A stretch of DNA of 64,000 nucleotides from Escherichia phage vB_EcoM_Shinka, in sequence record MZ502379.1; one strand, written 5' to 3'. The translations under genes and the position numbers were made by a program. Positions 29,905-50,334 of the stretch are shown here, in pieces. Numbering within the stretch: position 1 is the first letter of the stretch; the number at the start of each line of letters is the position of its first letter. The notes under the pieces are model-generated. The model saw nothing but the letters and a program-made list of their open reading frames with translations, was not told where the DNA came from and did not search any database.

Positions 29905-30105
29905 TTACCTCACATAATTTTCTTCAAGCCAATCAATAACATCCAAAGCGTTATCAAAAGTTGCGCCATCTACTTTGTCTTCTGTTTCATAATCAAGAAC
30001 ATCTAGGCCTACTCTTCCGTCAACAATAGGCCATAGACAAAATAGATATTTCTTTTCTTTTTCAATTTTATCACAAAGACGATAAATCTTTTCTAGGTTA
30101 TTCAT
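29905..30105 (-). CDS. hypothetical protein (cd.x region)
   Basis: 66-aa ORF. Confidence 0.55.
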   Translation of the reverse strand: MNNLEKIYRLCDKIEKEKKYLFCLWPIVDGRVGLDVLDYETEDKVDGATFDNALDVIDWLEENYVR

Positions 30106-30294
30106 ACGTTTTCCATGGTAAAGGCAGTTTAGTTTTCTTTACTACTAGTTCAACATCAGGATTCTTTTCTCTTAATTTAAGGCATTCCTCCCAAGCTCTG
30201 ATTTCACTAGTGAATACACAAAATTGCCCATTACTAGTACCAACTAAACCACTATTTACAATAACAATAGACCAAGTTTCATGATGCCACGCCA

Positions 30295-30295
<1 letters not shown>
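30098..30295 (-). CDS. hypothetical protein
   Basis: 65-aa ORF directly downstream of pseT. Confidence 0.55.
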
Positions 30296-31520
<1,225 letters not shown>

Positions 31521-31523
31521 TTA

Positions 31524-31754
31524 TTATTTCTCAACCAATGATTGAATATAATCATGCAAGTCTTTAGATGCTTTACCCCACTTATTTTGGTATTCATTTT
31601 TAAGATTAGCCCGAGATTGAGCTAATAAAACATCATTAGTTGGAGGTAAAGATTCTAACCGTTGAATCTGGCGTCCATAAATCATTGCAGCCATCTCGGA
31701 TTCATAAATCAATCCTTTGAGATGTTCAAATTGATGCCATGAAATCATTTGCAT
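31524..31754 (-). CDS. hypothetical protein
   Basis: 76-aa ORF. Confidence 0.55.
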   Translation of the reverse strand: MQMISWHQFEHLKGLIYESEMAAMIYGRQIQRLESLPPTNDVLLAQSRANLKNEYQNKWGKASKDLHDYIQSLVEK

Positions 31755-32044
31755 TTATCCTCTTTTAACTCTTGACGATAATAACATATCATAGTTTTCT
31801 GATCATGTACATATCGTTTTACATCATTAAGCCAAATGCGAAATTCCTGGGAATCTTCAAATGGCATACCGACCCAAGCTTTACCATCAATAACTTTAAC
31901 TTGCCAAGATAGTTTAGCTTCATCATATGACTTTATTTGTACAGGCCAATTAGGATGAACTGTTTCTTTCTTTACTTCTAGAGGCTTTGTCGAACAACCA
32001 ACTAGAAGACCAATAGATAATATTACTGCTGATAGTTTAATCAT
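31745..32044 (-). CDS. pseT.2: outer-membrane spanin (o-spanin) lipoprotein
   Basis: 99-aa ORF; signal peptide and lipobox LLVGC near the N-terminus; overlaps the upstream i-spanin gene. Confidence 0.8.
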   Translation of the reverse strand: MIKLSAVILSIGLLVGCSTKPLEVKKETVHPNWPVQIKSYDEAKLSWQVKVIDGKAWVGMPFEDSQEFRIWLNDVKRYVHDQKTMICYYRQELKEDKCK

Positions 32045-32394
32045 TTAGAAAGGTCCTGGATGTCTTCTGCGAACTTGTTGAAGGAGTTGTTGATTTGTTT
32101 TTCAACCAATCCTGGCTTATGAGCCACCACATCCGCCTTCTTTGCGTCTTTGCGCAGTTTTTCATTTTCACGCTCAATAGCAGCAATTGCCTCACGATTT
32201 TTATTATTCATCGCATCAATATAATTATACTGAATTCGCAAATTATTTAATGCTAAAGCGTTTTCATTGGCCGTTTTTGTAATTTCTACAACAGACGTTT
32301 CTAATCTTTCAATTTTATTTTTTAAAATTAAAGAAGTTCCGCCCAATGCAATTACAATTAATAGCAAGCCTGCTGTCGTATTACTTAATTGCAT
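32041..32394 (-). CDS. pseT.3: inner-membrane spanin (i-spanin)
   Basis: 117-aa ORF; N-terminal transmembrane helix then a coiled-coil periplasmic domain; adjacent to the o-spanin. Confidence 0.8.
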   Translation of the reverse strand: MQLSNTTAGLLLIVIALGGTSLILKNKIERLETSVVEITKTANENALALNNLRIQYNYIDAMNNKNREAIAAIERENEKLRKDAKKADVVAHKPGLVEKQINNSFNKFAEDIQDLSK

Positions 32395-33018
32395 AAAGTT
32401 TTAATAACCTCTATAATATCGTCTTGAGAAAGACCGTTAATTAAAATATGATGTTCAGCCGGAGATTTAGAAATTTTAAAGCATGCCTCAACATCTTCTG
32501 CCATATCCGATGCGCTACGATTTGGATTACTAATTCCAAGACGATGTTTTCCCGTTAAAGGATTAACGATGATATAGCATTTCAGCCGGAGATTTAGAAA
32601 TTTTAAAGCATGCCTCAACATCTTCTGCCATATCCGATGCGCTACGATTTGGATTACTAATTCCAAGACGATGTTTTCCCGTTAAAGGATTAACGATGAT
32701 ATAGCATTTACAGTTGTTAATATGAACATTAGGTTGAGTCTGATTAATGAACACATCGCAATCATATTTCGCAAGCTGATTTTCTAAAAAGACTTTCATC
32801 TCCTCAACCGCATCAGGAAGCATATCACGGGCTTGCTCAAGACGACGATTTCGATATTCTTTAATGGTCGTTTTCCGCTTGACTTGCTTAGCTAAATCTT
32901 TCTTAAGATCGGTGATATATCCAACTCGACGATTTCCTTTAAATACAGAAATCCCATCTGTAGTATCACCGTATGCTTCAACGACCATTTCAGTAGTAAT
33001 AAGCTGCAAATCCATCAT
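32385..33018 (-). pseudogene. alc: alc (unf) gene disrupted by a 127-bp tandem duplication
   Basis: Two overlapping ORFs (151 aa and 93 aa) share the identical 43-aa segment KCYIIVNPLTGKHRLGISNPNRSASDMAEDVEACFKISKSPAE; removing one repeat copy restores a single ~167-aa ORF. Confidence 0.8.
32455..32708. repeat. perfect tandem duplication, 2 x 127 bp (copy 1 32455-32581, copy 2 32582-32708; boundaries slide by 2-3 nt)
   Basis: Identical 127-nt units read directly from the sequence; length not divisible by 3. Confidence 0.9.
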
Positions 33019-33046
33019 AAAGTCCTCATGTTATGTCAGTAAGACT

Positions 33047-33076
33047 ACTATAACACAACACGAGGGACTTGTAAAC
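33047..33076 (-). promoter_or_regulatory. early-type promoter upstream of alc (54-bp identical copy of the 17.1-kb promoter)
   Basis: Identical to 17084-17137 over 54 bp. Confidence 0.55.
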
Positions 33077-33079
33077 AGC

Positions 33080-34667
<1,588 letters not shown>

Positions 34668-34694
34668 AATAAAATGGGCCTTGCGGCCCACTCC

Positions 34695-35873
34695 TTAAAA
34701 ATATTTTTTAAAACTCATCATAACTTTATCATCAACATCATTATCAATCTGTGCTACAAGGTAAGATGACAGTTCTACTTCTTGCGGTGCAGATTGAACA
34801 TTATCAGAATTAAGGTATTCACGAATCCAAGGATATGGATGTTTAACCGGAGCATCGGTAATTGGACATGGAAGACCACACTGTTTCATACGAGATACAG
34901 TTAAGTAATCAATAAAGCTCCACATGCTATTTGTATTTAATCCAGGAACATCGCCATCTTTAAATAAATGAACTGCCCAATCTTTTTCTTGGCGGTTAAC
35001 TTCCATGAAAATATCAACTGCTTCTTGTTCACACTCTTGAGCAATTTTAACCCATTCATCGCCATCAGTACCGGATTGAAGTTGACGAATAATATATTGG
35101 GTGCCTTTAAGGTGAAGCTGCTCATCACGTGCAATGAACTTCATAATCTTGGCATTACCTTCCATGATTTCCATGTTCTTGTGGAAGTTAAAGGTACATG
35201 CAAAAGATACATAAAAGCGGATAGCTTCCAATGCGTTGATTACGTGCAGGCAGAGGTAAAGAGATTTCATTAGTGCTCGTTTAGCTTCGGCTTCTTGTTT
35301 AATAGCTCGATTTAAACGAAAATCAGCATCAGGAGATTCTTTAGCTAGTTCTACAAATTCTTTAGCATTTTCCCATTCACGGGTCTTCTTAAGAACATCA
35401 TCGTAATAGCGACCAATGGACTCGGCGCGTTTCATAATATCTTCATCTAATACAATCTCATCAAATACTTTTGACGGATCAGTATAAAGATTTCGCATAA
35501 TATGAGTGTATGAACGACTGTGAATAGTTTCGCTGAAAGTCCATGTAGCAACCCATGTATCAAGGCTTGGATCTGAAATTAACGACATAAGTACAGCAGA
35601 CGGCGCACGACCCTGAATGCTATCCAAAAGTGATTGATACTTCAGGTTATTAGTAAAAATATCTTGCTGATATTGAGGAAGCTTGTTAAATTGTGCAGCA
35701 TCCATCATTAAGTTTACTTCTTCAGGACGCCAGAAAAATGATAACTGCTTTTCGGTTAAATCTTCAAAAACTTTATGGCGTTGAATATCATAACGCGCAA
35801 TACCAAGACCTGAACCGAAGAACATAGGTTCTTTTAAAACATCAACTGGATTTGTATTAAAAACTGTGCTCAT
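34695..35873 (-). CDS. nrdB: ribonucleotide reductase small subunit NrdB (uninterrupted)
   Basis: 392-aa continuous ORF with diiron-site E..H motifs; no intron detected. Confidence 0.93.
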   Translation of the reverse strand: MSTVFNTNPVDVLKEPMFFGSGLGIARYDIQRHKVFEDLTEKQLSFFWRPEEVNLMMDAAQFNKLPQYQQDIFTNNLKYQSLLDSIQGRAPSAVLMSLISDPSLDTWVATWTFSETIHSRSYTHIMRNLYTDPSKVFDEIVLDEDIMKRAESIGRYYDDVLKKTREWENAKEFVELAKESPDADFRLNRAIKQEAEAKRALMKSLYLCLHVINALEAIRFYVSFACTFNFHKNMEIMEGNAKIMKFIARDEQLHLKGTQYIIRQLQSGTDGDEWVKIAQECEQEAVDIFMEVNRQEKDWAVHLFKDGDVPGLNTNSMWSFIDYLTVSRMKQCGLPCPITDAPVKHPYPWIREYLNSDNVQSAPQEVELSSYLVAQIDNDVDDKVMMSFKKYF

Positions 35874-35924
35874 AAATTTTCCGCTTAGTTAATAGATAGT
35901 GACTCGTCCGTGAGTCAAATTATA

Positions 35925-38189
35925 TCATAATTTACAGGATGAACAATCTTCAGCTTTTGGAGTTTCTATTTCATAATCATCAGTACCAGAACCGTCGCGG
36001 GTATTATGATAATAGAAATTTTTTCCGCCAAAATACCAAAAATACAAAAGGTCATCAATCATTATTGACATTGGAACCTTTCCTTTTGGAAAAATCTGCG
36101 GGTCATAATATGTATTTGCTGAAGCTGATTGACATACCCATTTAAGCATAATAGCTACCTGCGTAAGATAAGGTTTATTACCTTTCTTAGCTAATTTCCA
36201 CGTATAATCATAGAGGTCTATGTTATGCTCAATATTGGGCACGACTTGATTAAAGGAACCCTCTTTTGATTCTTTAACAGAGACTGGTCCACGTGGAGGC
36301 TCGATACCGTTTGTACTGTTAGAAACTTGTGAAGATGACTCACATGGCATAAGTGCTGATAATGTGCTATTACGGATGCCAAAGAGCTTAAGGTCTTCCC
36401 GCAGCGACGACCAGTCACAAACGTATTTTGGAGCTGCGATTTGGTCAATCTTTTTATTGTACCAGTCGATAGGTAATTCGCCTCGAGACCAACGAGTGTC
36501 TGAATAATATTCGCAAGGTCCTTTTTCTTTGGCGAGCTTAATGGATGCTTTAATGAGTCCATACTGCAATCTCTCAAATAGTTCATGTGTTAAATCGTTA
36601 GCATCTTCATAAGAAGCAAAGTTACTTGCCAGCCAAGCTGCATAGTTGGTAACACCTACACCGAGGTTACGACGCTTTTTAGCTTTTTCTGCTTCAGGAA
36701 CTGGATATCCTTGGTAATCCAACAGATTATCAAGAGCACGAACTTGAACTTCTGCCAATTCATTAATTTTATCTTGGTCTTGCCAGTCAAAATTATCTAG
36801 TACGAATGCAGAGAGAGTACACAATCCAATTTCAGCATCAGGACTATTCACATCATTTGTTGGAATAGCAATTTCACAACACAAGTTACTCTGACGAATA
36901 GGCGCCTTTTCACGAATAAACGGAGTATAGTTATTCGTATTATCAATGAACTGCACATAAATCCTTGCGGTTCCTGAACGTTCAGTCATGAGCAATTCAA
37001 ATAGTTCACGGGCTTTAATACGCTTTTTACGAATATTAGGGTCTTTTTCTGCTGCTTCGTATAATTCACGGAAACGGTTTTGGTCTTTAAAATAAGAATA
37101 ATAAAGCTCGCCACCCATTTCATGCGGACTGAACAAAGTAATGTAATCGTTCTTTCCGAATCGTTCCATCATCAAATCATTCAGCTGAACACCATAATCC
37201 ATATGACGAATGCGGTTTTCTTCTACGCCTTTGTTATTTTTCAAAACGAGAAGATTTTCAACTTCCAAATGCCAAATAGGATAATAAGCAGTAGCAGCGC
37301 CGCCACGAATTCCACCCTGTGAGCATGATTTAACAGCAGTCTGAAAATGTTTCCAAAAAGGAATAACACCAGTATGACGCACTTCACCCATGCCAATCTT
37401 AGAACCTTCGGCACGAATCATACCAACGTTAATACCAATTCCAGCACGTTTGGAGATATATTCAACAATTGAAGCGGAAGCCTTGTTGATAGACTTCAGC
37501 GAATCACCTGCCTCAATAACAACGCATGAACTAAATTGCCGAGTTGGAGTACGACAACCGGCCATAATAGGAGTTGGCAATGAAATCTGTCGAGTAGATA
37601 CTGCTTCATAAAAACGAATAACATGTTTTAATCTATCAACAGGTTCATCTTGATGCAATGCCATTCCAATAGTCATAAATGCAAACTGTGGAGTTTCATA
37701 AATTTGACCAGTGGTTTTATCTTTAACTAAATATTTTTCTTTTAATTGCATCGCCCCGGAATAAGTAAATTCCATATCCCGTTCGTGCTTAATTTTTGAT
37801 TCTAAAAATGTAATTTCTTCTGCTGAATATTTTGACAACAATTCAGGGTCATATTTACCTTCATTTACACAGTAAGAAATATGGTCAATAAATGAACGTG
37901 GTTCATACTGCCCATAAACATGCTTACGAAGAGCGAACATTAAACAGCGTGCAGCTACATATTGATAATCAGGCTCTTCAACCGAAATAGAATTCGCAGC
38001 GGCCTTAATGACAATAGTCTGAATATCATCAGTTGTCATTCCATCACGGAGATAAGATTTAATATTTTCATATAATTCATAAGGATCTACTGATGTTCCT
38101 TCAGCTGCCCAAGATAAAACTTTAATAATTTTTTGCGGGTCAAAGCTCTGAGAAACACCACTACTTTTGATAACATTAATTAATTGCAT
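35925..38189 (-). CDS. nrdA: ribonucleotide reductase large subunit NrdA
   Basis: 754-aa ORF, class Ia RNR alpha subunit, T4 NrdA length. Confidence 0.96.
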   Translation of the reverse strand: MQLINVIKSSGVSQSFDPQKIIKVLSWAAEGTSVDPYELYENIKSYLRDGMTTDDIQTIVIKAAANSISVEEPDYQYVAARCLMFALRKHVYGQYEPRSFIDHISYCVNEGKYDPELLSKYSAEEITFLESKIKHERDMEFTYSGAMQLKEKYLVKDKTTGQIYETPQFAFMTIGMALHQDEPVDRLKHVIRFYEAVSTRQISLPTPIMAGCRTPTRQFSSCVVIEAGDSLKSINKASASIVEYISKRAGIGINVGMIRAEGSKIGMGEVRHTGVIPFWKHFQTAVKSCSQGGIRGGAATAYYPIWHLEVENLLVLKNNKGVEENRIRHMDYGVQLNDLMMERFGKNDYITLFSPHEMGGELYYSYFKDQNRFRELYEAAEKDPNIRKKRIKARELFELLMTERSGTARIYVQFIDNTNNYTPFIREKAPIRQSNLCCEIAIPTNDVNSPDAEIGLCTLSAFVLDNFDWQDQDKINELAEVQVRALDNLLDYQGYPVPEAEKAKKRRNLGVGVTNYAAWLASNFASYEDANDLTHELFERLQYGLIKASIKLAKEKGPCEYYSDTRWSRGELPIDWYNKKIDQIAAPKYVCDWSSLREDLKLFGIRNSTLSALMPCESSSQVSNSTNGIEPPRGPVSVKESKEGSFNQVVPNIEHNIDLYDYTWKLAKKGNKPYLTQVAIMLKWVCQSASANTYYDPQIFPKGKVPMSIMIDDLLYFWYFGGKNFYYHNTRDGSGTDDYEIETPKAEDCSSCKL

Positions 38190-38506
38190 AAGTCCTCAAC
38201 TTGAAAATCGTCTTTAAACAGTCGGTTAACTATATGAGCTATTATATCACCATGACACGGCTTTGGTTTACATGTGCATCCTAGCCTCATTCCACGTAAA
38301 GGCTCTAAATGTGCTTTAGTTATTTCTCCGGATTTAATTCGACGTATAAAATCTTTTTTGAATAATTCAATGGCAGCCTCCCGGCTGCCAGCATCTTTAC
38401 CGACGTAATTTCCCCAAAATGTACCACGGTGAATATTAACATCAAAGTCGGATTTATATTTATTCACTACCTGGCATAGACGGCCCGCGCGGTGATAATT
38501 CGTCAT
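38180..38506 (-). CDS. hypothetical protein (nrdA.1 position)
   Basis: 108-aa ORF overlapping the nrdA start. Confidence 0.65.
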
Positions 38507-38723
38507 ATTGTTTTTCCGTTAAAACAGTAATATCATAGTAACAATCAGAAGAAGTTTTAACTGTAGAAATTTTATTATCAAAATACTCACGAGTCATTTT
38601 ATGAGTATAATATTTTTTGCCATAAATGATAATAGGCTGATTTGGTCCTGGAACTTCTAACTCACTTGGGTTAGGAAGTGTAAAAAGAACTACACCAGAA
38701 GTATCTTTAAATCGTAAAATCAT
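38460..38723 (-). CDS. hypothetical protein (nrdA.2 position)
   Basis: 87-aa ORF. Confidence 0.6.
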
Positions 38724-38746
38724 AAATCCTCACAATTAAATTAAAA

Positions 38747-39058
38747 TTACACCGCCATTTTTCCTTTCAAGACGCCGTGGGACTGATAATCTTTGAGAAC
38801 GAAATCTTTAGGCCTGAGTTTAAGAATGTATTCCAATTGTTCTTTAGTAGAAAGATAGCGGAATTTATAAGGCAATCCGCCTATTACCAGTTCACAAAGC
38901 TCTTTAGGTTCACGACGCAAAATTTCTTTACATTGTTCTACGTGATTCATATAGATATGAGTATTACCACCGGAAAATATCAAATCTCCCGGAATAAGAT
39001 TACACATCTTAGCTACAATATGAACTAACGTAGCATATGATGCAATATTAAATGGAAG
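38747..39058 (-). CDS. td: thymidylate synthase, exon 2 (103 codons plus stop)
   Basis: Continues exon 1 in frame after the intron: ...DVFLG | LPFNIASYATLVHIVAK...; the track start at 39061 is the intron-terminal AUG. Confidence 0.9.
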   Translation of the reverse strand, partial: LPFNIASYATLVHIVAKMCNLIPGDLIFSGGNTHIYMNHVEQCKEILRREPKELCELVIGGLPYKFRYLSTKEQLEYILKLRPKDFVLKDYQSHGVLKGKMAV

Positions 39059-39378
39059 CATTATGTTCAGATAAGGTCGTTAATCTTACCCCGGAATTAT
39101 ATCCAGCTGCATGTCACCATGCAGATCAGACTATATCTCCAACTTGTTAAAGCAAGTTGTCTATCGTTTCGAGTCACTTGACCCTACTCCCCAAAGGGAT
39201 AGTCGTTAGGCATTTATGTAGAACCAATTCCATTTATCAGATTTTACACGATAAGTAACTAATCCTGATGAAATTATTAAAGGGTAGTCCTACAATTTAG
39301 CACGGGATTGTCTACTAGAGAGGTTCCCCGTTTAGATAGATTACAAGTATAAGTCACCTTATACTCAGGCCTCAATTA
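39059..39378 (-). other. group I self-splicing intron in td, 320 nt, homing endonuclease ORF largely deleted
   Basis: Begins TAATTGAGGCCTGAGTATAAGGTG and ends ...GAACATAATG (td intron ends as recalled); interrupts the TS motif DVFLG/LPFN; encodes only the I-TevI C-terminal remnant SSGLVTYRVKSDKWNWFYINA. Confidence 0.85.
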
Positions 39379-39926
39379 ACCCAAGAAAACATCTACTGAT
39401 CGTTGATACCACTGCAAATCCAAATAGCCATTACGCACATTAAACTGATAGAACATATGACAAGGCGGTAATGCCATCTGCTTGAGTTCAGCTGGATTCC
39501 ATGCTGAAACAATTTGACGCCTATCATTTGGCAATTTTTTAATACGATCAATAACTTCTATAATTTGGTCTACACCGCCAAAATCACGCCACTGTTTTCC
39601 ATAAATTGGACCAAGTTCACCGCTATGGTATCCTAAATCTTTTGCTTGATTTTCGTAATTTTCATCCCAGACTGTTTTGCCTTGAATTAATGAATTATGT
39701 TGAATTAATCGCAAATCATTGACATTTGTGCTTCCCGATAAAAACCAAAGCAGCTCAGCAATGCAAGCTTTCCAGGCGAGCTTCTTAGTTGTTACTGCAG
39801 GAAAACCTTTAGTTAAATCCCAGCGTAATTTAGTACCGAACAAAGCAATTGTTCCTGTGCCTGTTCGGTCATCGGTTTCGTAGCCATTTTCCAGGATATC
39901 TTTAATTAAAAATTGGTATTGTTTCA

Positions 39927-39927
<1 letters not shown>
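39379..39927 (-). CDS. td: thymidylate synthase, exon 1 (183 codons)
   Basis: ATG 39927 (MKQYQFLIKDILENGYETDDRTGTGT...); active-site region ALPPCH present; the track start at 39939 is a TTG. Confidence 0.9.
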
Positions 39928-40956
<1,029 letters not shown>

Positions 40957-40966
40957 ATTATTTTCC

Positions 40967-41209
40967 TTAAACAGACTTTTTCACAATTTTCCAATCAGCT
41001 TTAAACTGCTCGACGTCAGAATGGTAAATCCAGAATCCTGCGCTTTCTCCATCCTCATAAAGAGGGCATCTATCACATTCATCTTCCCATCCCATATCAC
41101 GCAAAAGATGTTCAGCTTTTTCAACAAGTTCAGAATCTTTACCGATGATATTAAAATACCATTTACCTCTAACTTCCGAATCTTTGATGCTCTGGCGTTG
41201 TAATCTCAT
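40967..41209 (-). CDS. hypothetical protein (frd.x region)
   Basis: 80-aa ORF with early-type promoter upstream. Confidence 0.65.
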   Translation of the reverse strand: MRLQRQSIKDSEVRGKWYFNIIGKDSELVEKAEHLLRDMGWEDECDRCPLYEDGESAGFWIYHSDVEQFKADWKIVKKSV

Positions 41210-41234
41210 TTTATTCTCCTTAGTTGATAGGGTA

Positions 41235-41264
41235 ATAGTATCACACTACTACCCTTCTGTAAAC
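41235..41264 (-). promoter_or_regulatory. early-type promoter
   Basis: Minus-strand GTTTACAGAAGGGTAGTAGTGTGATACTAT upstream of ORF 40967-41209. Confidence 0.5.
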
Positions 41265-41572
41265 TACTTTTTGAAAGTTTTTCGCAAAAGTTCAATGATT
41301 TCATCTACATTGTTTTCGTCTACAATGCAGTGAATTTTTGTTACACCAGAAACCAGGTCTTTGACTTCATCTTCTTCAGAAGTCGGTTCTTTATATTCTC
41401 GGAAACAATAAAACTCTTCTTCACTAAGTTCAAAATAATCATCACCCATACCATCATCATTATAGATTTCACCATTAGCACAAATGATTTCGGTTACATA
41501 ATCAAAGCCATCTAAACTTGATATTGATTTAACTTCAAACCAACCACCATTTTCTTGAATGATGCCGACCAT
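41264..41572 (-). CDS. hypothetical protein (frd.x region)
   Basis: 102-aa acidic ORF. Confidence 0.65.
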   Translation of the reverse strand: MVGIIQENGGWFEVKSISSLDGFDYVTEIICANGEIYNDDGMGDDYFELSEEEFYCFREYKEPTSEEDEVKDLVSGVTKIHCIVDENNVDEIIELLRKTFKK

Positions 41573-41694
41573 ATTAGCATTTGATGAACTAATATCAATG
41601 AAAGATTTAATACGGTGTGGATTTAACTCGTATTTTTGCCGATTTCCATTTTGATTTTCCTCATTTTAATAGGGGCTTAATAGCCCCTTGATAA

Positions 41695-41922
41695 TTATTG
41701 TTCAATCATTCCCATGTAAAATTCTGTGTCTTCAGCATCCATACCATCACAATATTCATTAGCCATAAAGCGGGTGAGGTCTTCAAGAGGACCTTCAATA
41801 ACGATTTGAATACTCCAAAACTTAGAATCTTGCACGCTTGTGATACTAAGTTCAGGATAACGATTACGAATAATCTCTTCAATATATTCAAAATCAACGA
41901 TGTCAATATCAACTTTAGCCAT
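41695..41922 (-). CDS. hypothetical protein
   Basis: 75-aa ORF from ATG 41922 (MAKVDIDIV...) with Shine-Dalgarno and early-type promoter upstream; track ORF over-extended. Confidence 0.6.
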
Positions 41923-41965
41923 ATTATTTTCCTCTTTAATCATCAGCAGTATTGCCAATAGTTGT

Positions 41966-41995
41966 ATAGTACCATGGAAGAACAGGGATGTAAAC
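41966..41995 (-). promoter_or_regulatory. early-type promoter
   Basis: Minus-strand GTTTAC...GGTACTATACAACTAT upstream of ORF 41695-41922. Confidence 0.5.
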
Positions 41996-42017
41996 AGTTT
42001 TGTGAAAAAATTTTGAA

Positions 42018-42044
42018 ATAAAAAAGGGGACCCTAGAGGTCCCC
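42018..42044 (-). terminator. intrinsic terminator after gene 32
   Basis: GGGGACC-loop-GGTCCCC (minus) followed by TTTTTTATTTC. Confidence 0.6.
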
Positions 42045-42066
42045 AATTAATTAGTAATATAATCTA

Positions 42067-42975
42067 TTAAAGGTCATTCAAAAGGTCATCCAGGTCCGTG
42101 TCATCAGCACTAGATGAACTGCCAGAGCTTGAGCTCATAAAATCATCTTCAGTTTTTGTATTGAAGTCATCAACATTGAATGCATCCAAATCATCAGCAA
42201 CTTTATCAGCTTTCTTAGCAGCAGTTGCAGCGGCACCGCCCATCACAGCAGTTCCCATAACTTGACCGAATTTAGTATTCAGTTCTTCAAATGATTTGAA
42301 TTTATCTTTAGAAGTCATTTCAGAAAGGTCAACCATTTGTTCGAACAGTTCTTTCTGGAAAGATTCATCATCAATGTTTGGAATCGCAGATTGATTCAGG
42401 AATTTAGATTCGTCGTAGTTACTAAATCCAGAAACCTGTTTAACTTTCAGTACAAAGTTAGCACCTTCCCACGGACAAGTTACATCAACCGGAGTTTCAC
42501 CCATTTCAACATCAACCGCAATCATCGCGTTGATTTTATCCCAGATTTTCTTACCGAAACGATATTTAAATACTTTACCTTCATTTTCTGGAGCAGCTGG
42601 GTCTTTTACAACAAGAATATTAGCCCAGTAAGAAGTTTTACGTTTAACAAGACTGTACTCTTTATTGTCAGTGTTGTACAGATCATTTTTACTGATGTAC
42701 TGACATACTGGGCAAGAATCGTAATCACCATGGGTAGATGAACATGTTTCAATATACCATTTACCATTTTTCTTGAAACCGTGATTTACAAGAATTGCGA
42801 ATGGTGCTTGTTCATCATTTTTAGACGGAAGAAAACGAATTACTGCTTGACCGTTACCCGCATTGTCGAGTTTCAGTTTCCACTCGCCTTTATCTTCAGA
42901 AGAAAAACCACCTTTATTTCCAGCCAGTTTAGCCATTTGTGCAGCGAGTTCAGCAGTAGATTTACGTTTAAACAT
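42067..42975 (-). CDS. 32: single-stranded DNA-binding protein gp32
   Basis: 302-aa [20 protein letters not shown]...; zinc site CxxC, acidic Ser/Asp-rich C-terminus. Confidence 0.97.
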
Positions 42976-43050
42976 TTTTATTTCCTTTTTAATTTAATTA
43001 ACAGTTGGTGCTATGACGATGTATGACCTCATAGCTGGTCAGTGAGATAA
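42976..43050 (-). promoter_or_regulatory. gene 32 translational operator (pseudoknot plus UUAAA-repeat unstructured leader)
   Basis: Leader reads ...GCUAUGAGGUCAUACAUCGUCAUAGCACCAACUGUUAAUUAAAUUAAAAAGGAAAUAAAAAUG, the classic gp32 autoregulatory site as recalled. Confidence 0.8.
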
Positions 43051-43074
43051 TTATAATCTATTTATAATAAGCAA

Positions 43075-43728
43075 TTAATACTTGCAAGATTTCACAGTTT
43101 CAATGAAAACATTTTTAGCTTTCTGTGAATCAATATTTAAAATTTTTCTATAAGCCTTTAACTTTATAGAATAATTATTCCAGACTAAATTATCAGTCTG
43201 TTCATCGTGTTTATCAATTATATTTAAAAACGAATCAAGCAAGATAAACGTTTCAAACGAAATTATATTCGATTGAAGTAGTTTAAAAATATAACTTGAC
43301 TGAACCTTTGGATTATATTCAAAGATTTCTTTAAAAGCAGAAACTTCAACTTTCTTACTAAAATAATAAATGTTGCGAATATCTTCTTCAAACTTAAATT
43401 TAATTTGCTTTAAGCGTCCGATATATTCACGATAAAACACAAGTGCATCAGCGTCAGAGATGTCGCCAATCCAAGCATCCTGGTTAGCAACAAGATTGCT
43501 TATAAAGATTAAAGCAAGTTCCTTTAATTTATATTTTTCTGATAACTTCTGGAAAAAATACTTATCCCTTCGCTTTTGATAAGCGGCATCAGACACCCGC
43601 ATGCACCAATTATACTTAATTACATCATACTTTCCATTCATATGTTGTTTTATCATTAAGTATAATTTATAAACTGATTTACCATCAATGTATCTTTCAC
43701 CACCAGCAGGCATGCGGAGTTTAATCAT
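43075..43728 (-). CDS. 59: helicase loader gp59
   Basis: 217-aa ORF, T4 gp59 length. Confidence 0.93.
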   Translation of the reverse strand: MIKLRMPAGGERYIDGKSVYKLYLMIKQHMNGKYDVIKYNWCMRVSDAAYQKRRDKYFFQKLSEKYKLKELALIFISNLVANQDAWIGDISDADALVFYREYIGRLKQIKFKFEEDIRNIYYFSKKVEVSAFKEIFEYNPKVQSSYIFKLLQSNIISFETFILLDSFLNIIDKHDEQTDNLVWNNYSIKLKAYRKILNIDSQKAKNVFIETVKSCKY

Positions 43729-44063
43729 AGTAGAAAATCTAATGTATTAGTTTTTTCACAACGAACAACAGAAGGACGCAAAAGATTTTCGTCGATAGCT
43801 TCTGACTGAATTTTTTCAATTATACCCGAAGGAATAAATTTAGCAAATTGAGTTTCAGGAATAGAGTTTTCTTCCAAGAATGCTGTCGTAGCTTCAAGAT
43901 AACTCATTCCAAATTCTTCTACCATTTTTTCAATAATAAATCCATTTTCTTGGCGGTCAAGAAGCTTTGCAATTTCATCCTTTTCTTTCTTAATTGAAAG
44001 TTCTTTTTCTGAAAGCCCGGCCTCATCGACCGGGCGAATATCATTTAGAGAAAACTGTGTCAT
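43725..44063 (-). CDS. 33: late transcription co-activator gp33
   Basis: 112-aa ORF from ATG 44063. Confidence 0.85.
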   Translation of the reverse strand: MTQFSLNDIRPVDEAGLSEKELSIKKEKDEIAKLLDRQENGFIIEKMVEEFGMSYLEATTAFLEENSIPETQFAKFIPSGIIEKIQSEAIDENLLRPSVVRCEKTNTLDFLL

Positions 44064-44310
44064 AAAGTTCAACTACCTCTTCAGTTTCAGCTTCAAACAC
44101 ATCACGGTTATCTTTATGATACAAAGCTAATAGACGATTAAACATCTTACCATCAACGCCAAGTTCATCTTTAGCACGAATTCGAATATCTTTAATCAAT
44201 TCATTATAACCAGAAATTTTCAGTTTATGATCAGATGCTTCTTTAATAAATTTAGCCAAGTCTTCGCCATGGATAGCTTCATCAAATTCAACCATTTCTT
44301 TTTTAGCCAT
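44041..44310 (-). CDS. dsbA: double-stranded DNA-binding protein DsbA
   Basis: 89-aa ORF, position between rnh and 33. Confidence 0.85.
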   Translation of the reverse strand: MAKKEMVEFDEAIHGEDLAKFIKEASDHKLKISGYNELIKDIRIRAKDELGVDGKMFNRLLALYHKDNRDVFEAETEEVVELYDTVFSK

Positions 44311-44318
44311 TATTCACC

Positions 44319-45236
44319 TCAAAATTCATTAATGCTATTAGTTAATTTAGAAAGACCCGCTTTTACAAAATATGAATAAATTTTGCCGCGCGGTGGTAAT
44401 TTATATGAATTATAGTAATTCACAATGTTTGAAGCAATATTATCAGGAATATAATCAAAATCAATTAGAACTAAATTTTCTTTATAACGATTATATTCAG
44501 ATTCTGTGAGAAGCACCTTAGCTTGCTCACGGTCATTAGCAATAGCTTCAACAATAGAGGTTTTCATTGAAGGAGTTCGTTCACCTTCAACTCTGGTAAA
44601 CCAAAAGTCAGATCGTACTTTAACTGAAGCAACGTTATCCTTTTTGTCGCCTTTAAGGATTTTAGTCATACAGTCAATTTCAGCAGAACCGCTTTTAATT
44701 TTAACCCATTTCTTGTGCATCGGTGACCATTGCTTAACATTTGGATATTTGTGAAGTTGAGTAAAGTCACCATCCGATGAAATGATTAAAATCTTGTGTC
44801 CTTCTAAAGAGAACTTTTTAACAAGAACAGCAATGTGGTCATCTGCTTCATACTTATCAATATCCATAACAATGTATGGCATATAAGCTTTTAATTCATC
44901 TATAACTTTATGACTGGATTCAAAATAACCTTCCCAGTCCCAAGTAGATTCTTCTCGTGCTTTTCCACGGTTTTTCTTATAATAATAAGCGAAATCACGA
45001 CGCCAGTATCCAGATTTCGCGTTATCAATACATAGTACAATTTTAGTGTATCCAAGCGTTTTTGCTTTTTTGACATTAAACTTAATTGAGTTCAATATCA
45101 AATGACGAACCATTGATAAATTAATTTTTTCTTTATCTGGGAAGTTTACCAGAGCAGTTGAAAGAGCAATTTGACTAAAGTCAATAAAGCAAATTCCTTC
45201 TTTGTAATCTTCATCCAGCATCATTTCTAAATCCAT
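44319..45236 (-). CDS. rnh: RNase H (5-prime to 3-prime exonuclease, FEN family)
   Basis: 305-aa ORF from ATG 45236 (MDLEMMLDEDYKEG...). Confidence 0.93.
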   Translation of the reverse strand: MDLEMMLDEDYKEGICFIDFSQIALSTALVNFPDKEKINLSMVRHLILNSIKFNVKKAKTLGYTKIVLCIDNAKSGYWRRDFAYYYKKNRGKAREESTWDWEGYFESSHKVIDELKAYMPYIVMDIDKYEADDHIAVLVKKFSLEGHKILIISSDGDFTQLHKYPNVKQWSPMHKKWVKIKSGSAEIDCMTKILKGDKKDNVASVKVRSDFWFTRVEGERTPSMKTSIVEAIANDREQAKVLLTESEYNRYKENLVLIDFDYIPDNIASNIVNYYNSYKLPPRGKIYSYFVKAGLSKLTNSINEF

Positions 45237-45298
45237 ATGAACCTCGTTCAATTAGTGAGATTTCTATTATATACTATCTAAATCTTAAAGTAAACAGG

Positions 45299-45306
45299 TA
45301 TAAATA
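45299..45306 (+). promoter_or_regulatory. late promoter (TATAAATA) for gene 34
   Basis: Exact TATAAATA 35 nt upstream of the ATG. Confidence 0.6.
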
Positions 45307-45340
45307 CTTATTATTGAAAACACAATAGGAGCCCGGGAGA

Positions 45341-48300
45341 ATGGCCGAGATTAAAAGAAAGTTCAGAGCAGAAGATGGTCTGGACGCAGGTGGCGATAAA
45401 ATAATCAATGTAGCTTTAGCTGATCGTACCGTAGGAACTGACGGTGTTAACGTTGATTACTTAATTCAAGAAAACACAGTTCAGCAATATGATCCAACTC
45501 GTGGATATTTAAAAGATTTTGTAATCATTTATAATAATCGTTTTTGGGCAGCAACGGATAATATTCCAAAACCTGCTGGAAATTTTAATAGAATTCGTTG
45601 GAAAGCATTACGTACTGATGCCGTATATACAACCGTATCATCTGGACCATATCAATTAAAATCCGGAGAAGCAATTTCAGTAGATACATCAGTTGGCAAT
45701 GACATTGAGTTTACTTTACCACCTTCTCCGCTTGATGGAGAAACCGTAATAATTCAAGATATCGGTGGAAAACCTGGCATAAATCAGGTTAAAATAAATT
45801 CTTCAAATCAGAGTATTGTCAATTTTAGAGGTGAACAGGTACGTTCAGTTTTAATGACTCATCCAAAGTCACAGATGGTATTCATTTTTAATAATCGTTT
45901 GTGGCAAATGTATATTGCTGATTATAGCAGAGAAGCTGCGATTGTTACTCCATCGACTGCATATCAAGCACAATCTAATGATTTTATCGTACGTAGATTT
46001 ACTTCTGCCGCACCGATTAATGTTAAACTTCCAAGATTTGCCAATCATGGAGATATCATTAATTTCGTTGATTTAGATAAATTAAATCCACTTTATCATA
46101 CAATTGTTACGACATATGATGAAACAACGTCAGTGCAAGAAGTTGGAACTCATTCCATTGAAGGCCGTACATCGATTGACGGTTTCTTGATGTTTGATGA
46201 TAATGAGAAATTGTGGAGATTGTTTGACGGGGATAGTAAAGCACGTTTACGCATTATAACAACTAATTCTAATATTCGTCCAAATGAAGAAGTTATGGTA
46301 TTTGGTGCGAATAACGGAACAGCTCAGACAATTGAACTTCAGCTTCCGACTGATATTTCTGTTGGTGATACTGTTAAAATTTCCATGAATTACATGAGAA
46401 AAGGACAAACAGTTAAAATCAAAGCTGCTGGTGAAGATAAAATTGCTTCTTCAGTTCAATTGCTGCAATTCCCAAAACGCTCAGAATATCCACCTGAAGC
46501 TGAATGGGTAACAGTTCAAGAATTAGTTTTTAACGGTGAAACTAATTATGTACCAGTTTTGCAACTTGCTTATATAGAAGATTCTGATGGAAAATACTGG
46601 GTTGTACAGCAAAACGTTCCAACAGTTGAAAGAGTCGATTCTTTAAATAATTCTACTAGAGCAAGATTAGGCGTAATTGCTTTAGCTACACAAGCTCAAG
46701 CAAATGCTGATTTAGAAAATTCTCCGCAAAAAGAATTGGCAATTACTCCAGAAACGTTAGCTAATCGTACTGCTACAGAAACTCGCAGAGGTATTGCAAG
46801 AATAGCAACTACTGCTCAAGTGAATCAGAACACCACATTCTCTTTTGCAGATGACCTTATCATCACTCCTAAAAAGCTGAATGAAAGAACTGCTACAGAA
46901 ACTCGCAGAGGTGTCGCTGAAATTGCTACGCAGCAGGAAACTAATACAGGTACTGATGATACTACAATCATCACTCCTAAAAAGCTTCAAGCTCGTCAAG
47001 GTTCTGAAACATTATCGGGTATTGTAACTTTTGTATCTACCGCAGGAGCTACTCCAGCTTCTAGTCGTGAATTAAATGGTACGAATGTTTATAATAAAAA
47101 CACTAATAATTTAGTTGTTTCACCTAAAGCTTTGGATCAGTATAAAGCTACTCCAACGCAACAAGGCGCAGTAATTTTAGCAGTTGAAAGTGAAGTAATT
47201 GCTGGACAAAGCCAAGAAGGATGGGCAAATGCGGTTGTAACGCCAGAAACGTTACATAAAAAGACATCAACTGATGGAAGAATTGGTTTAATTGAAATTG
47301 CTACGCAAAGTGAAGTTAATACAGGAACTGATTATACTCGCGCAGTCACTCCTAAAACTTTAAATGACCGTAGAGCAACTGAAAGTTTAAGTGGTATAGC
47401 TGAAATTGCTACGCAAGTTGAATTCGACGCAGGCGTCGACGATACTCGTATCTCTACACCATTAAAAATTAAAACCAGATTTAATAGTACTGATCGTACT
47501 TCTGTTGTTGCTCTATCTGGATTAGTTGAATCAGGAACTCTCTGGGACCATTATACCCTTAATATTCTTGAAGCAAATGAGACACAGCGTGGTACACTTC
47601 GTGTAGCTACACAAGTTGAAGCTGCTGCAGGAACATTAGATAATGTTTTAATAACTCCTAAAAAGCTTTTAGGTACTAAATCTACCGAATCGCAAGAAGG
47701 TGTTATTAAAGTTGCAACTCAGTCTGAAACTGTAGCTGGAACGTCAGCAAATACTGCTGTATCTCCAAAAAATTTAAAATGGATTGTGCAGAGTGAACCT
47801 ACTTGGGCAGCGACTACTGCGATAAGAGGTTTTGTTAAAACTTCGTCTGGTTCAATTACATTCGTTGGTAATGATACAGCTGGTTCAACACAGCCATTAG
47901 AATCATATGAGAAAAATGGTTATGCAGTATCACCATATGAATTAAATCGCGTATTAGCAAATTATTTGCCATTAAAAGCAAAAGCCGTAGATAGTAATTT
48001 ATTAGATGGTCTAGATTCGCTCCAGTTCATTCGTAGGGACATTGCACAAACAGTTAATGGTTCACTAACCTTAACCCAACAAACGAATCTGAGTGCCCCT
48101 CTTGTATCATCTAGTACTGCTACATTCGGTGGATCAGTTTCAGCAAATAGTACATTAACTATTTCTAATACTGGAACGGCAACTCGTCTGATTTTTGAGA
48201 AAGGACCTCAAACTGGAACAAACCCGGCTCAAACGATGACAGTCAGAGTGTGGGGAAATCAATTTAGTGGGGAATCAGACACAACACGTTCTACCGTATT

Positions 48301-49210
48301 TGAAGTTAGTGATGAAACGTCTAGTCATTTTTATTCTCAGCGTAATAAAGCTGGAAATATAACATTTAATATCAACGGTACAGTAACACCGATAAATGTT
48401 AATGCTTCAGGAACATTGAATGCGAATGGCGTTGCTACATTTGGTAATTCAGTCACTGCAATTGGTGAAATTATTTCTCGAAGCGCAAATGCTTTCCGTG
48501 CTATTAATGGAAATTATGGTTTCATTATTCGTAATGACGGGTCAGTAACGAATTTTATGCTTACTGCATCAGGCAATCAAACTGGTGGATTTAATGGATT
48601 ACGTCCATTGTCCATTAATAATCAATCTGGGCAGGTCACAATTGGTGAAAGCTTGATCATTGCTAAAGGTGCTACTATAAATTCAGGTGGTTTAACTGTT
48701 AACTCGAGAATTCGTTCTCAAGGTGTTAAAACATCTGATTTATATACCCGTGCGCCGACATCTGATACTGTAGGATTCTGGTCAATTGATATTAACGATT
48801 CAGCCACTTATAACCAGTTCCCGGGTTATTTTAAAATGGTTGAAAAAACTAATGAAGTGACTGGGCTTCCATACTTAGAACGTGGCGAAGAAGTTAAATC
48901 TCCTGGTACATTGACTCAGTTTGGTAACACACTTGATTCACTTTACCAAGATTGGATTACTTATCCAACAACTCCAGAAGCGCGTACCACTCGTTGGACG
49001 CGTACATGGCAGAAAACCAAAAACTCTTGGTCAAGTTTTGTTCAGGTATTTGACGGAGGTAACCCTCCTCAACCTTCAGATATAGGAGCAATCCCATCTG
49101 ATAATGGAATAATAGGTAATCTTACTATTCGCGATTTCTTGCGAATTGGTAATGTTCGCATTATTCCTGACCCAGTGAATAAAACTGTTAAATTTGAATG
49201 GATTGAATAA
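45341..49210 (+). CDS. 34: long tail fibre proximal subunit gp34
   Basis: 1289-aa ORF, T4 gp34 length; internal repeated modules. Confidence 0.96.
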   Translation: MAEIKRKFRAEDGLDAGGDKIINVALADRTVGTDGVNVDYLIQENTVQQYDPTRGYLKDFVIIYNNRFWAATDNIPKPAGNFNRIRWKALRTDAVYTTVSSGPYQLKSGEAISVDTSVGNDIEFTLPPSPLDGETVIIQDIGGKPGINQVKINSSNQSIVNFRGEQVRSVLMTHPKSQMVFIFNNRLWQMYIADYSREAAIVTPSTAYQAQSNDFIVRRFTSAAPINVKLPRFANHGDIINFVDLDKLNPLYHTIVTTYDETTSVQEVGTHSIEGRTSIDGFLMFDDNEKLWRLFDGDSKARLRIITTNSNIRPNEEVMVFGANNGTAQTIELQLPTDISVGDTVKISMNYMRKGQTVKIKAAGEDKIASSVQLLQFPKRSEYPPEAEWVTVQELVFNGETNYVPVLQLAYIEDSDGKYWVVQQNVPTVERVDSLNNSTRARLGVIALATQAQANADLENSPQKELAITPETLANRTATETRRGIARIATTAQVNQNTTFSFADDLIITPKKLNERTATETRRGVAEIATQQETNTGTDDTTIITPKKLQARQGSETLSGIVTFVSTAGATPASSRELNGTNVYNKNTNNLVVSPKALDQYKATPTQQGAVILAVESEVIAGQSQEGWANAVVTPETLHKKTSTDGRIGLIEIATQSEVNTGTDYTRAVTPKTLNDRRATESLSGIAEIATQVEFDAGVDDTRISTPLKIKTRFNSTDRTSVVALSGLVESGTLWDHYTLNILEANETQRGTLRVATQVEAAAGTLDNVLITPKKLLGTKSTESQEGVIKVATQSETVAGTSANTAVSPKNLKWIVQSEPTWAATTAIRGFVKTSSGSITFVGNDTAGSTQPLESYEKNGYAVSPYELNRVLANYLPLKAKAVDSNLLDGLDSLQFIRRDIAQTVNGSLTLTQQTNLSAPLVSSSTATFGGSVSANSTLTISNTGTATRLIFEKGPQTGTNPAQTMTVRVWGNQFSGESDTTRSTVFEVSDETSSHFYSQRNKAGNITFNINGTVTPINVNASGTLNANGVATFGNSVTAIGEIISRSANAFRAINGNYGFIIRNDGSVTNFMLTASGNQTGGFNGLRPLSINNQSGQVTIGESLIIAKGATINSGGLTVNSRIRSQGVKTSDLYTRAPTSDTVGFWSIDINDSATYNQFPGYFKMVEKTNEVTGLPYLERGEEVKSPGTLTQFGNTLDSLYQDWITYPTTPEARTTRWTRTWQKTKNSWSSFVQVFDGGNPPQPSDIGAIPSDNGIIGNLTIRDFLRIGNVRIIPDPVNKTVKFEWIE

Positions 49211-49218
49211 GAGGTATT

Positions 49219-50334
49219 ATGGAAAAATTTATGGCAGAGTTTGGACAAGGATATGTTCAAACGCCATTTTTATCGGAAAGCAATTCAGTAAGATATAAAA
49301 TAAGTATAGCGGGTTCTTGCCCGCTTTCTACAGCAGGACCATATGTTAAATTTCAGGATAATCCCGTTGGAAATCAAACATTTAGCGCAGGTCTTCATTT
49401 AAAAGTTTTTGACCCTTCTACAGGAGCATTAGTTGACAGTAAATCATATGCTTTTTCTGCTTCAAACAATACAACATCTGCCGCTTTTGTCAGTTTCATG
49501 AATTCTTTGTCAAACAATAGACTTGTTGCTATATTAACTAGCGGAAAGGTTAATTTTCCTCCTGAAGTGGTATCTTGGTTAAGGGGAGCAGGAACTTCAG
49601 TTTTTCCATCAGATTCAGTATTGTCAAGATTTGACGTGTCATATGCTGCTTTTTATACTTCTTCTAAAAGAGCTATTGCATTAGAGCATGTTAAACTAAG
49701 TAATAGAAAAAGCACAGATGATTATCAAACTATTTTAGATGTTGTATTTGATAGTTTAGAAGACGTCGGAGCTACAGGATTTCCTAAAAGAACATACGAA
49801 AGCGTTGAGCAATTTATGTCTGCGGTTGGAGGAACTAATAATGAAATTGCGCGATTGCCAACTTCAGCTGCTATAAGTAAACTTTCTGACTACAATTTAA
49901 TTCCTGGTGATGTTCTTTATCTTAAAGCACAACTATATGCTGATGCTGATTTACTTGATCTTGGAACTACAAATATATCTATTCGTTTTTATGATGCATC
50001 AAATGGATATATTTCCTCGACCCAAGCTGAGTTTACTGGACAGGCTGGGTCATGGGAATTAAAGGAAGATTATGTAGTTGTTCCTGAAAATGCAGTAGGA
50101 TTTACGATATATGCACAAAGAACTGCCCAAGCAGGTCAAGGCGGCATGAGAAATTTAAGCTTTTCTGAAGTATCAAGAAATGGCGGCATTTCAAAACCTG
50201 CCGAATTTGGCGTCAACGGTATTCGCGTTAATTATGTCTGCGAATCGGCTTCACCTCCAGATATAATGGTACTTCCTACACAAGCCTCTTCTAAAACTGG
50301 CAAAGTGTTTGGGCAAGAATTTAGAGAAGTTTAA
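49219..50334 (+). CDS. 35: long tail fibre hinge protein gp35
   Basis: 371-aa ORF following gene 34. Confidence 0.93.
   Translation: MEKFMAEFGQGYVQTPFLSESNSVRYKISIAGSCPLSTAGPYVKFQDNPVGNQTFSAGLHLKVFDPSTGALVDSKSYAFSASNNTTSAAFVSFMNSLSNNRLVAILTSGKVNFPPEVVSWLRGAGTSVFPSDSVLSRFDVSYAAFYTSSKRAIALEHVKLSNRKSTDDYQTILDVVFDSLEDVGATGFPKRTYESVEQFMSAVGGTNNEIARLPTSAAISKLSDYNLIPGDVLYLKAQLYADADLLDLGTTNISIRFYDASNGYISSTQAEFTGQAGSWELKEDYVVVPENAVGFTIYAQRTAQAGQGGMRNLSFSEVSRNGGISKPAEFGVNGIRVNYVCESASPPDIMVLPTQASSKTGKVFGQEFREV

Follow-up and report, generated by a model that had tools for sequence, protein, structure and literature searches.

A compact td group I intron in Escherichia phage vB_EcoM_Shinka, probably derived from the mobile T4-type intron by a natural deletion

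The thymidylate synthase gene (td) of Escherichia phage vB_EcoM_Shinka (MZ502379.1) is split by an element of 320 nt. In phage T4 (NC_000866), td carries a mobile group I intron of 1017 nt, in which the 245-codon ORF of the homing endonuclease I-TevI occupies intron positions 133–870. Is the short element the same intron, what has become of its endonuclease gene, and can what is left still splice and spread?

The td locus and the identity of the intron

The window analyzed here, a stretch of 64,000 nt, comes from the genome of a T4-like phage (Tequatrovirus). Its best public match over positions 30000–50000 is Yersinia phage PYps55T, with 97.3% identity across the 20 kb compared. The genes of interest lie on the minus strand in the order frd, a 68-aa ORF, td exon 1, the intron, td exon 2, nrdA.2, nrdA.1 and nrdA. 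Coordinates are collected in Table 1, where intron position i corresponds to window position 39379 − i.

Table 1. Features of the td locus in the Shinka window, and the td introns of three other phages in the coordinates of their own loci.
Feature	Position	Strand	Remarks
frd	40130–40711	minus	
68-aa ORF	39927–40133	minus	between frd and td
td exon 1 (thymidylate synthase)	39379–39927	minus	549 nt; ATG at 39927
P1, 5' strand	39379–39385	minus	last 7 nt of exon 1, CUUGGGU
Group I intron, T4 td lineage, I-TevI gene deleted	39059–39378	minus	320 nt
Internal guide sequence GCCUGAG	39364–39370	minus	intron 9–15; pairs with exon-1 CUUGGGU to form P1
P10		minus	first 3 nt of exon 2 (CUU) can pair with intron G8-A7-G6
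L6a loop	39226–39285	minus	intron 94–153; 60 nt, folds locally
Deletion junction	39274–39275	minus	intron 104–105, AA
I-TevI remnant	39206–39274	minus	codons 224–245 (ISSGLVTYRVKSDKWNWFYINA) and TAA; start codon and RBS absent
P6a, 3' strand GGUUCUACA	39217–39225	minus	intron 154–162, inside the I-TevI frame
Catalytic core, P7 5' strand to P7 3' strand	39129–39204	minus	intron 175–250; encloses P7.1, P7.2, the P3 3' strand and P8
Omega-G, 3' splice site	39059	minus	
td exon 2	38747–39058	minus	312 nt including the stop codon
td intron of phage G28	1001–1445 of G28 locus		same type in FL18, F1, FN and vB_EcoM_112
td intron of phage N2	1001–1254 of N2 locus		254 nt
td intron of phage GRNsp7	1501–1754 of GRNsp7 locus		254 nt

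A sequence-only reading of the window had proposed that td is split between DVFLG and LPFNIAS by a 320-nt element with td-intron ends. Comparison with T4 bears this out: the boundaries at 39059 and 39378 are exact, the element sits on the minus strand, and the insertion site (FLG/LPF) and both ends are those of the T4 intron. Exon 1 ends with TTTCTTGGGT (in a longer form, GTTTTCTTGGGT, which encodes DVFLG) at 39379; the intron runs from TAATTGAGGCCTGAGTATAAGGTG at 39378 to GAACATAATG at 39059; and exon 2 begins with CTTCCATTTAATATTGCA (LPFNIA) at 39058. The Shinka intron is colinear with T4 intron positions 1–106 and 801–1017, and everything between them is absent. The reading had put the T4 intron at about 1 kb with a 245-codon I-TevI gene, which agrees with the T4 record. 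Its homologous sequence and its location at the same codon of td place the element in the T4 td lineage. The td intron of the T4 type presumably belongs to subgroup IA2.

The Rfam group I model RF00028 matches positions 39107–39388 of the minus strand with 66.9 bits (gathering score 50, E = 8.5e-15). The match spans model positions 1–253 of 253, and is therefore full-length rather than truncated. It is the sole group I match to Rfam in the 64-kb window.

Several other features of the surroundings differ from T4. The frd and td genes of T4 abut directly, whereas in Shinka they are separated by the 68-aa ORF, for which Pfam gives no match and which shares 1 nt with the td ATG. A different ORF of about 115–119 aa occupies this position in phages HP3, Elenatom, VEc20 and N2, and such variability of the frd–td flank could influence homing efficiency. 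The nrdB gene of Shinka (34695–35924, minus strand; 392 aa) is unsplit and lies only 51 nt from nrdA, and the gap between them lacks the mobE-type endonuclease and nrdB.1 that are both found in T4. The close relative PYps55T has a 243-aa homing endonuclease gene (HEG) between nrdB and nrdA, where Shinka has none. Similarly, only 99 nt (42976–43074) separate a 302-aa (gp32-sized) from a 217-aa (gp59-sized) ORF, both named from size and gene order only, so that segG, present there in T4 and PYps55T, appears to be missing.

The ribozyme core and splicing of td

A secondary structure model of the td intron, comprising P1–P6, P6a, P7, P7.1, P7.2, P8–P9, P9.1, P9.2 and P10, was drawn on the Shinka sequence. 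All 81 base pairs of this P1–P10 model form, including those of P3–P8, the P3/P7 pseudoknot and the P4–P6 domain that define a group I core. The P10 pairing used, between CUN of exon 2 and the P1 loop, agrees with the published description (PMC8554844). The intron ends in AUAAUG, the last G being the omega-G at window position 39059. A minimum free energy (MFE) fold, computed without constraints on the intron with 8-nt exon flanks (−90 kcal/mol, z = −2.3), and the corresponding centroid reproduce P2, P3, P4, P5, P6, P6a, P7.1, P7.2, P8, P9 and P9.1 exactly as modelled.

The core, consisting of the 5' 84 nt up to P6 and the 3' 159 nt from P6 onwards, is 100% identical to that of the phage fFiEco06 intron, which encodes a full 245-codon I-TevI. 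It differs from T4 at one of 243 nt (A for C at intron position 253), between P7 and P9 and outside the modelled helices. The sequence-only reading had held that the ribozyme core was kept and the endonuclease deleted; the colinear alignment to the T4 intron and the structure model, with P1–P9 intact and I-TevI codons 1–223 gone, agree with it on both counts.

The same helices were examined across 11 distinct variant cores. P1 has seven of seven pairs in every one of them, with one-sided changes that preserve pairing, and the U·G pair at the 5' splice site, at the end of P1, is invariant (11 of 11). P3, P4, P5, P6 and P7 are likewise invariant. Standard pairs fill 99.3% of the pair cells, compared with 30–43% when the 3' partners are slid by 1–3 columns; the 11 cores are about 96% identical on average, and one of them supplied the sequence on which the structure was drawn. 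The solid compensatory changes are A-U to U-A in P8 (three sequences) and G·U to U-A in P10 (three sequences), while P1, P7.1, P9 and P9.2 show one-sided switches among G-C, G·U and A-U. Seven pairs change on both sides, five of which come from the alternative P6a hairpin of GRNsp7, where the alignment is arbitrary; when this hairpin is set aside, double-sided changes are confined to P8 and P10. Covariation thus lends the model weak support.

The endonuclease ORF and the ribozyme overlap in this intron. In T4, I-TevI is encoded mostly within a non-essential loop, and the 3' end of its ORF reaches into the structured core (PMC2988022). In Shinka, the 3' strand of P6a, which pairs with intron positions 85–93 (window 39286–39294), and the 3' strand of P6 (GC, intron 168–169) both fall within the final I-TevI codons (...W F Y I N A). 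The L6a loop, which holds I-TevI in full-length introns and is dispensable, is here made up of about 45 nt of the I-TevI remnant and about 12 nt that precede the deletion junction. In the MFE and centroid folds, the remnant loop folds on itself and extends P6a.

Conceptual splicing gives a thymidylate synthase of 286 aa, of which 271 are identical in T4. The spliced frame has 286 codons in all 15 td sequences compared (Shinka and 14 other phages, with full-length introns and every compact class). The ratio pN/pS is 0.09–0.13 among the Tequatrovirus comparisons; it is 0.09 between Shinka and HP3 and 0.10 between Shinka and N2, both of which also carry compact introns. A pN/pS of about 0.1 with an intact frame indicates purifying selection, which a td gene split by an inactive intron would not retain. 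The td intron remains active when it is permuted or opened in the ORF region of P6a (PMC8554844), and it serves as an efficiently self-splicing cassette (PMC3636086). Given a core shared with an I-TevI-encoding intron, the presence of all helices and the constraint on the exons, the Shinka intron should be capable of guanosine-dependent self-splicing, in agreement with the sequence-only reading, which expected it to splice still. The td pre-mRNA would then splice itself by a guanosine-initiated, two-step transesterification to yield a normal 286-aa thymidylate synthase.

The I-TevI remnant, the deletion and its distribution

What remains of the endonuclease gene is a C-terminal fragment. The sequence-only reading had recognized a stretch encoding SSGLVTYRVKSDKWNWFYINA followed by a stop, and had assigned it to the I-TevI C-terminus. 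The stretch is present in intron frame 3 and the assignment is correct, but the remnant comprises 22 codons (I224–A245) and not 21. It matches the Pfam I-TevI DNA-binding domain (PF20987, I-TevI_DNA-bd; E = 2.7e-11) at profile positions 31–51 of 51 only; the C-terminal DNA-binding domain is therefore incomplete, and none of the GIY-YIG catalytic domain remains in the intron. The remnant also lacks the start codon, RBS and late promoter of a translatable gene. Its frame runs from TAG through DYPLIISSGL...INA to the stop, with no ATG, GTG or TTG start, and no entry of the ORF list falls there; the td strand of the intron has no ORF of at least 20 codons beginning with ATG.

The deletion can be defined precisely by comparison with full-length td introns (1016–1017 nt). 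Relative to the 1016-nt intron of the VEc20/TuIa type, it removes 696 nt, parent positions 106–801. Shinka intron positions 1–105 correspond to parent 1–105 and positions 104–320 to parent 800–1016, and the flanks contain no mismatch. The two ends are joined at a 2-nt AA microhomology (TTTAATAA/ATAC... and ...TTTGAA/ATTTCA) and are embedded in imperfect A/T-rich repeats (TTTAATAA and TTTGAAA). Lost are the start codon of I-TevI with the 26 nt immediately 5' of it, and codons 1–223. In T4, the I-TevI late promoter, an overlapping operator and an RBS hairpin lie immediately 5' of the ORF (PMC2988022). The TuIa td record AY262157 (1517 bp) was considered as a possible published I-TevI deletion and set aside: though only a partial cds, it contains the full-length intron of 1016 nt, with all 245 codons of I-TevI intact.

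We consider it very probable that the 320-nt intron is a natural deletion derivative of a mobile T4-type td group I intron. A single 696-nt deletion within the P6a loop would have fused two A/T-rich stretches through the AA microhomology. The 3' part of the remnant would serve at the same time as the 3' strand of each of two helices, P6a and P6; the sequence before it would be neutral loop. The tail of the I-TevI ORF has probably been kept because it supplies these two strands.

A 60-nt probe across the junction finds the same junction in at least 16 public records. Five are identical to Shinka over the probe (vB_EcoM-101112UKE3-1, PYps55T, MLP2, UPWr_E2 and C2-3), and 11 carry one or two SNPs (Pinarejo, SYGD1, U115, ESh30, four HP3 records, L14, 235Ecol030PP and Elenatom). 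These introns are 97.8–100% identical to that of Shinka over their length; 101112UKE3-1, PYps55T, MLP2 and UPWr_E2 match it throughout, and C2-3 at 99.7%. The phages were isolated independently by different laboratories in different countries, from sources such as bird faeces (Germany), chicken faeces and a tree stump (USA), with further isolates from Poland and elsewhere. In none of these records is the intron annotated, td being recorded as two "thymidylate synthase" CDSs, and some records of the 320-nt allele call three spurious small ORFs within the intron. The publication on PYps55T does not mention a td intron. Two of the sister remnants have changed further: that of 235Ecol030PP has a frameshift caused by a 1-nt deletion, and that of Elenatom a Gly-to-Arg substitution. 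The frameshift and the missense change argue that the remnant is not under coding constraint.

The sequences around the junction point to a mosaic history. Near the junction, Shinka carries markers of the TuIa/VEc20 type (ACTACCC and TCATCA), while the more distant sequence on either side and the two exons are of the fFiEco06 type. HP3 and Elenatom share the junction within a more TuIa-like intron (positions 13, 14, 54 and 128); their exon 1 diverges by 7% from that of Shinka, yet their exon 2 is identical to Shinka exon 2. The ORF upstream of td has 68 aa in Shinka, UKE3-1 and 235Ecol030PP and about 115–119 aa in HP3 and Elenatom. The simplest account would be that the deletion arose once, in an intron of the TuIa type, and was then carried into other td haplotypes by patchy homologous recombination. 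The exon-1 differences between Shinka and HP3 start at −19, near the I-TevI cleavage site at −23/−25; no clean co-conversion tract can be made out, however, as the differences are patchy and extend into the intron itself (positions 13, 14, 54, 128 and 240). In 235Ecol030PP, the identity of exon 2 to Shinka collapses at about +141 past the 3' splice site (73% ungapped over the exon). Its td keeps the 286-codon frame, and the exon-2 pattern resembles that of a recombination breakpoint.

In other phages the td intron takes at least four further compact forms, all lacking the endonuclease and all sparing the core. The G28-type intron (445 nt, eight records) arose by a deletion between two CATTTTAAA repeats, which fuses I-TevI codons 1–33 to codons 224–245 in frame and keeps the ATG and the upstream sequence. 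A mini-protein of 55 aa could be made from this form, and RefSeq labels it "homing endonuclease". In Klebsiella phage EI, a deletion between GGAAT repeats leaves an intron of 315 nt and the peptide MKSGIGFT followed by a stop. The EI record notes "intron of plasmid pMTL007C-E2", a reflection of the ORF-less td intron found on ClosTron plasmids. The introns of PD112 and BYEP01 (262–263 nt) have lost nearly the entire loop, and the PD112 type retains no I-TevI remnant. The introns of N2 and GRNsp7 (Table 1) are about 97% identical, yet have unrelated 12-nt P6a hairpins (GTTCTTTTGAAC and CAGCAGTAGCTG, respectively). The N2 locus also has a gene on the opposite strand (1824–2254), just downstream of td/nrdA.2, whose annotation reads "endonuclease I-TevI". 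A gene so placed near an ORF-less td intron may be a free-standing GIY-YIG endonuclease next to a possible target, in a collaborative-homing arrangement. The 320-, 445- and 315-nt forms have distinct deletion junctions, which indicates independent origins.

By a rough count that includes duplicate RefSeq and GenBank entries, about 228 records contain a closely related td with some intron, about 35 of them compact. About 549 records match a probe for the spliced junction, of which, after subtraction of the matching compact-intron records, roughly 500 are intronless. Across genera, the intron core is far more conserved than the exons that flank it. The td exons of Mosigvirus G2469 and of EI are 60–79% identical to those of Shinka. 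For G2469 the two exons show 79% and 63% identity and the core differs at 7 of 243 nt; the EI intron is 89.7% identical overall. This pattern fits horizontal transfer of the intron.

Alternative explanations, mobility and known systems

Four other explanations of the short intron were weighed against the deletion. Endonuclease-free group I introns exist, and models for the origin of introns and HEGs, such as collaborative homing, posit ancestors of this kind (PMC2988022); the 320-nt intron could accordingly be an ancestral form that predates the invasion by I-TevI, and the 254-nt introns of N2 and GRNsp7, with their short unrelated hairpins, could represent such a state. The Shinka allele itself, however, contains 66 nt that align colinearly and almost without difference to the last 22 I-TevI codons, in the right frame and with the same stop. 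About 45 of these 66 nt lie outside the helices, so that ribozyme structure does not explain the resemblance. The junction flanks also match the full-length VEc20/TuIa-type intron perfectly, the 5' side ending 26 nt from the I-TevI ATG. An ancestral origin of this allele is effectively refuted by the in-frame remnant, and we regard it as extremely improbable. Even less credence, close to none, is given to an artefact of assembly or cloning, or to a laboratory ΔORF td construct. ORF-deleted td introns are common laboratory tools, and the EI record cites similarity to the intron of a ClosTron plasmid. But the junction recurs in 16 records from independent isolates with SNPs among them, and over 20 kb even the best public match to Shinka reaches no more than 97.3% identity.

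The two remaining explanations accept the loss of the endonuclease and concern what was left behind. Since td is dispensable in thyA+ hosts, phage viability alone is no proof of splicing, and the intron might be splicing-defective, with td a decaying pseudogene in a phage that relies on the host thymidylate synthase. Splicing is known to be disturbed when I-TevI is translated (PMC2988022), so that its efficiency is sensitive to this region. Yet removal of the ORF and its RBS should lessen the interference of ribosomes with folding, the core is identical to that in introns of phages with an intact I-TevI, and the exons are intact at a pN/pS of about 0.1, also between carriers of compact introns. 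We consider a splicing defect very unlikely. The remnant, being part of the I-TevI DNA-binding domain, might alternatively be expressed as a small DNA-binding peptide, or act as a regulatory element, and have been kept for that function; the separate G28-type allele, with its 55-codon in-frame fusion, does retain an ATG and upstream sequence. In Shinka, by contrast, the start codon and RBS are absent, the upstream DNA is deleted and only 21 of 51 domain positions are left, while sister alleles have the frameshift and missense changes and the PD112 type dispenses with the remnant entirely. Retention for such a function has very little probability.

The derivation of the intron by deletion from a mobile parent bears on its mobility. 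Without an endonuclease ORF the Shinka intron is not an autonomous mobile intron, as it lacks an active endonuclease of its own, and it would be unable to initiate its own homing. No free-standing HEG that could permit collaborative homing was found between frd and nrdB in the Shinka window. The sequence-only reading had concluded that the intron can no longer home. This is correct for autonomous homing, with the qualification that the presence of the allele in different flanking haplotypes points to continued movement by recombination, in which I-TevI acting in trans may take part. An intron of this kind would spread passively through homologous recombination.

The target of I-TevI is 38 bp long and spans the insertion site; in intronless DNA the enzyme cuts 23/25 nt upstream of that site (PMC2988022). 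The Shinka intron splits this target, so that the allele should resist I-TevI from co-infecting relatives. Its persistence can be understood on two grounds, namely that only a base-perfect excision would restore td and that the I-TevI target is split. We tentatively suggest, as a combined proposal that we think has some chance of being right but is on balance unlikely, that at least three independent I-TevI deletions (the 320-, 445- and 315-nt forms), together with the 262–263- and 254-nt forms, have spared the core; that the 320-nt allele spread into td haplotypes by recombination or I-TevI-assisted trans-homing; and that endonuclease-less td introns are favoured as a cheap "immunity" allele, with a split I-TevI site and no endonuclease cost.

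The Shinka intron is an ordinary and well-understood stage in the life cycle of a homing endonuclease, and its decay is of the expected kind. We found no description of a natural ORF-less td intron in the accessible literature; the allele seems to be undescribed there, though its exact sequence is already in public genomes, and it may be called unsurprising. It offers a natural case of endonuclease decay in the best-studied mobile intron, one that matches the laboratory ΔORF constructs. The case is also useful for annotation, as td is recorded as two fragments with spurious ORFs, or a mislabelled "homing endonuclease", between them. The compact and truncated forms could serve for a population study of the rate of HEG loss, and the same set could show whether HEG-less introns protect from I-TevI-mediated marker exclusion. 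Sandegren and Sjoberg (2004) are said to have described inactivating deletions in several HEGs of T-even introns.

Compared with the T4 td intron (NC_000866, positions 143235–145112), the Shinka intron has the same gene, insertion site, ends and P1–P10 architecture. It differs in the absence of 696–697 nt (the upstream DNA, the start codon and codons 1–223) and is non-autonomous. Engineered td cassettes with a deleted ORF or a permuted P6a resemble it, as they too are ribozymes without an ORF in which the P6a loop is dispensable (PMC8554844); these laboratory constructs have other junctions, whereas that of Shinka is a microhomology junction in a natural allele. In the homing-endonuclease cycle of yeast introns, invasion and fixation are followed by degeneration and loss; the gene decays when it has ceased to be useful, and the intron stays because nothing but its exact removal is tolerated (PMC2988022). 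In contrast to that cycle, intronless targets are abundant for td (about 500 records), and scarcity of targets across the records surveyed does not explain the decay. Reviews from 2010 (PMC2993671) describe each of the three T-even introns as coding for an HEG of its own. The closest parallel in form is the T4 nrdB intron with its defunct I-TevIII, where the endonuclease has also suffered a large deletion and the ribozyme has been kept (PMC2790892, PMC2988022). The I-TevIII relic is an annotated ORF of 97 codons from the HNH family, whereas the remnant in Shinka is untranslatable and the lost enzyme was of the GIY-YIG family.
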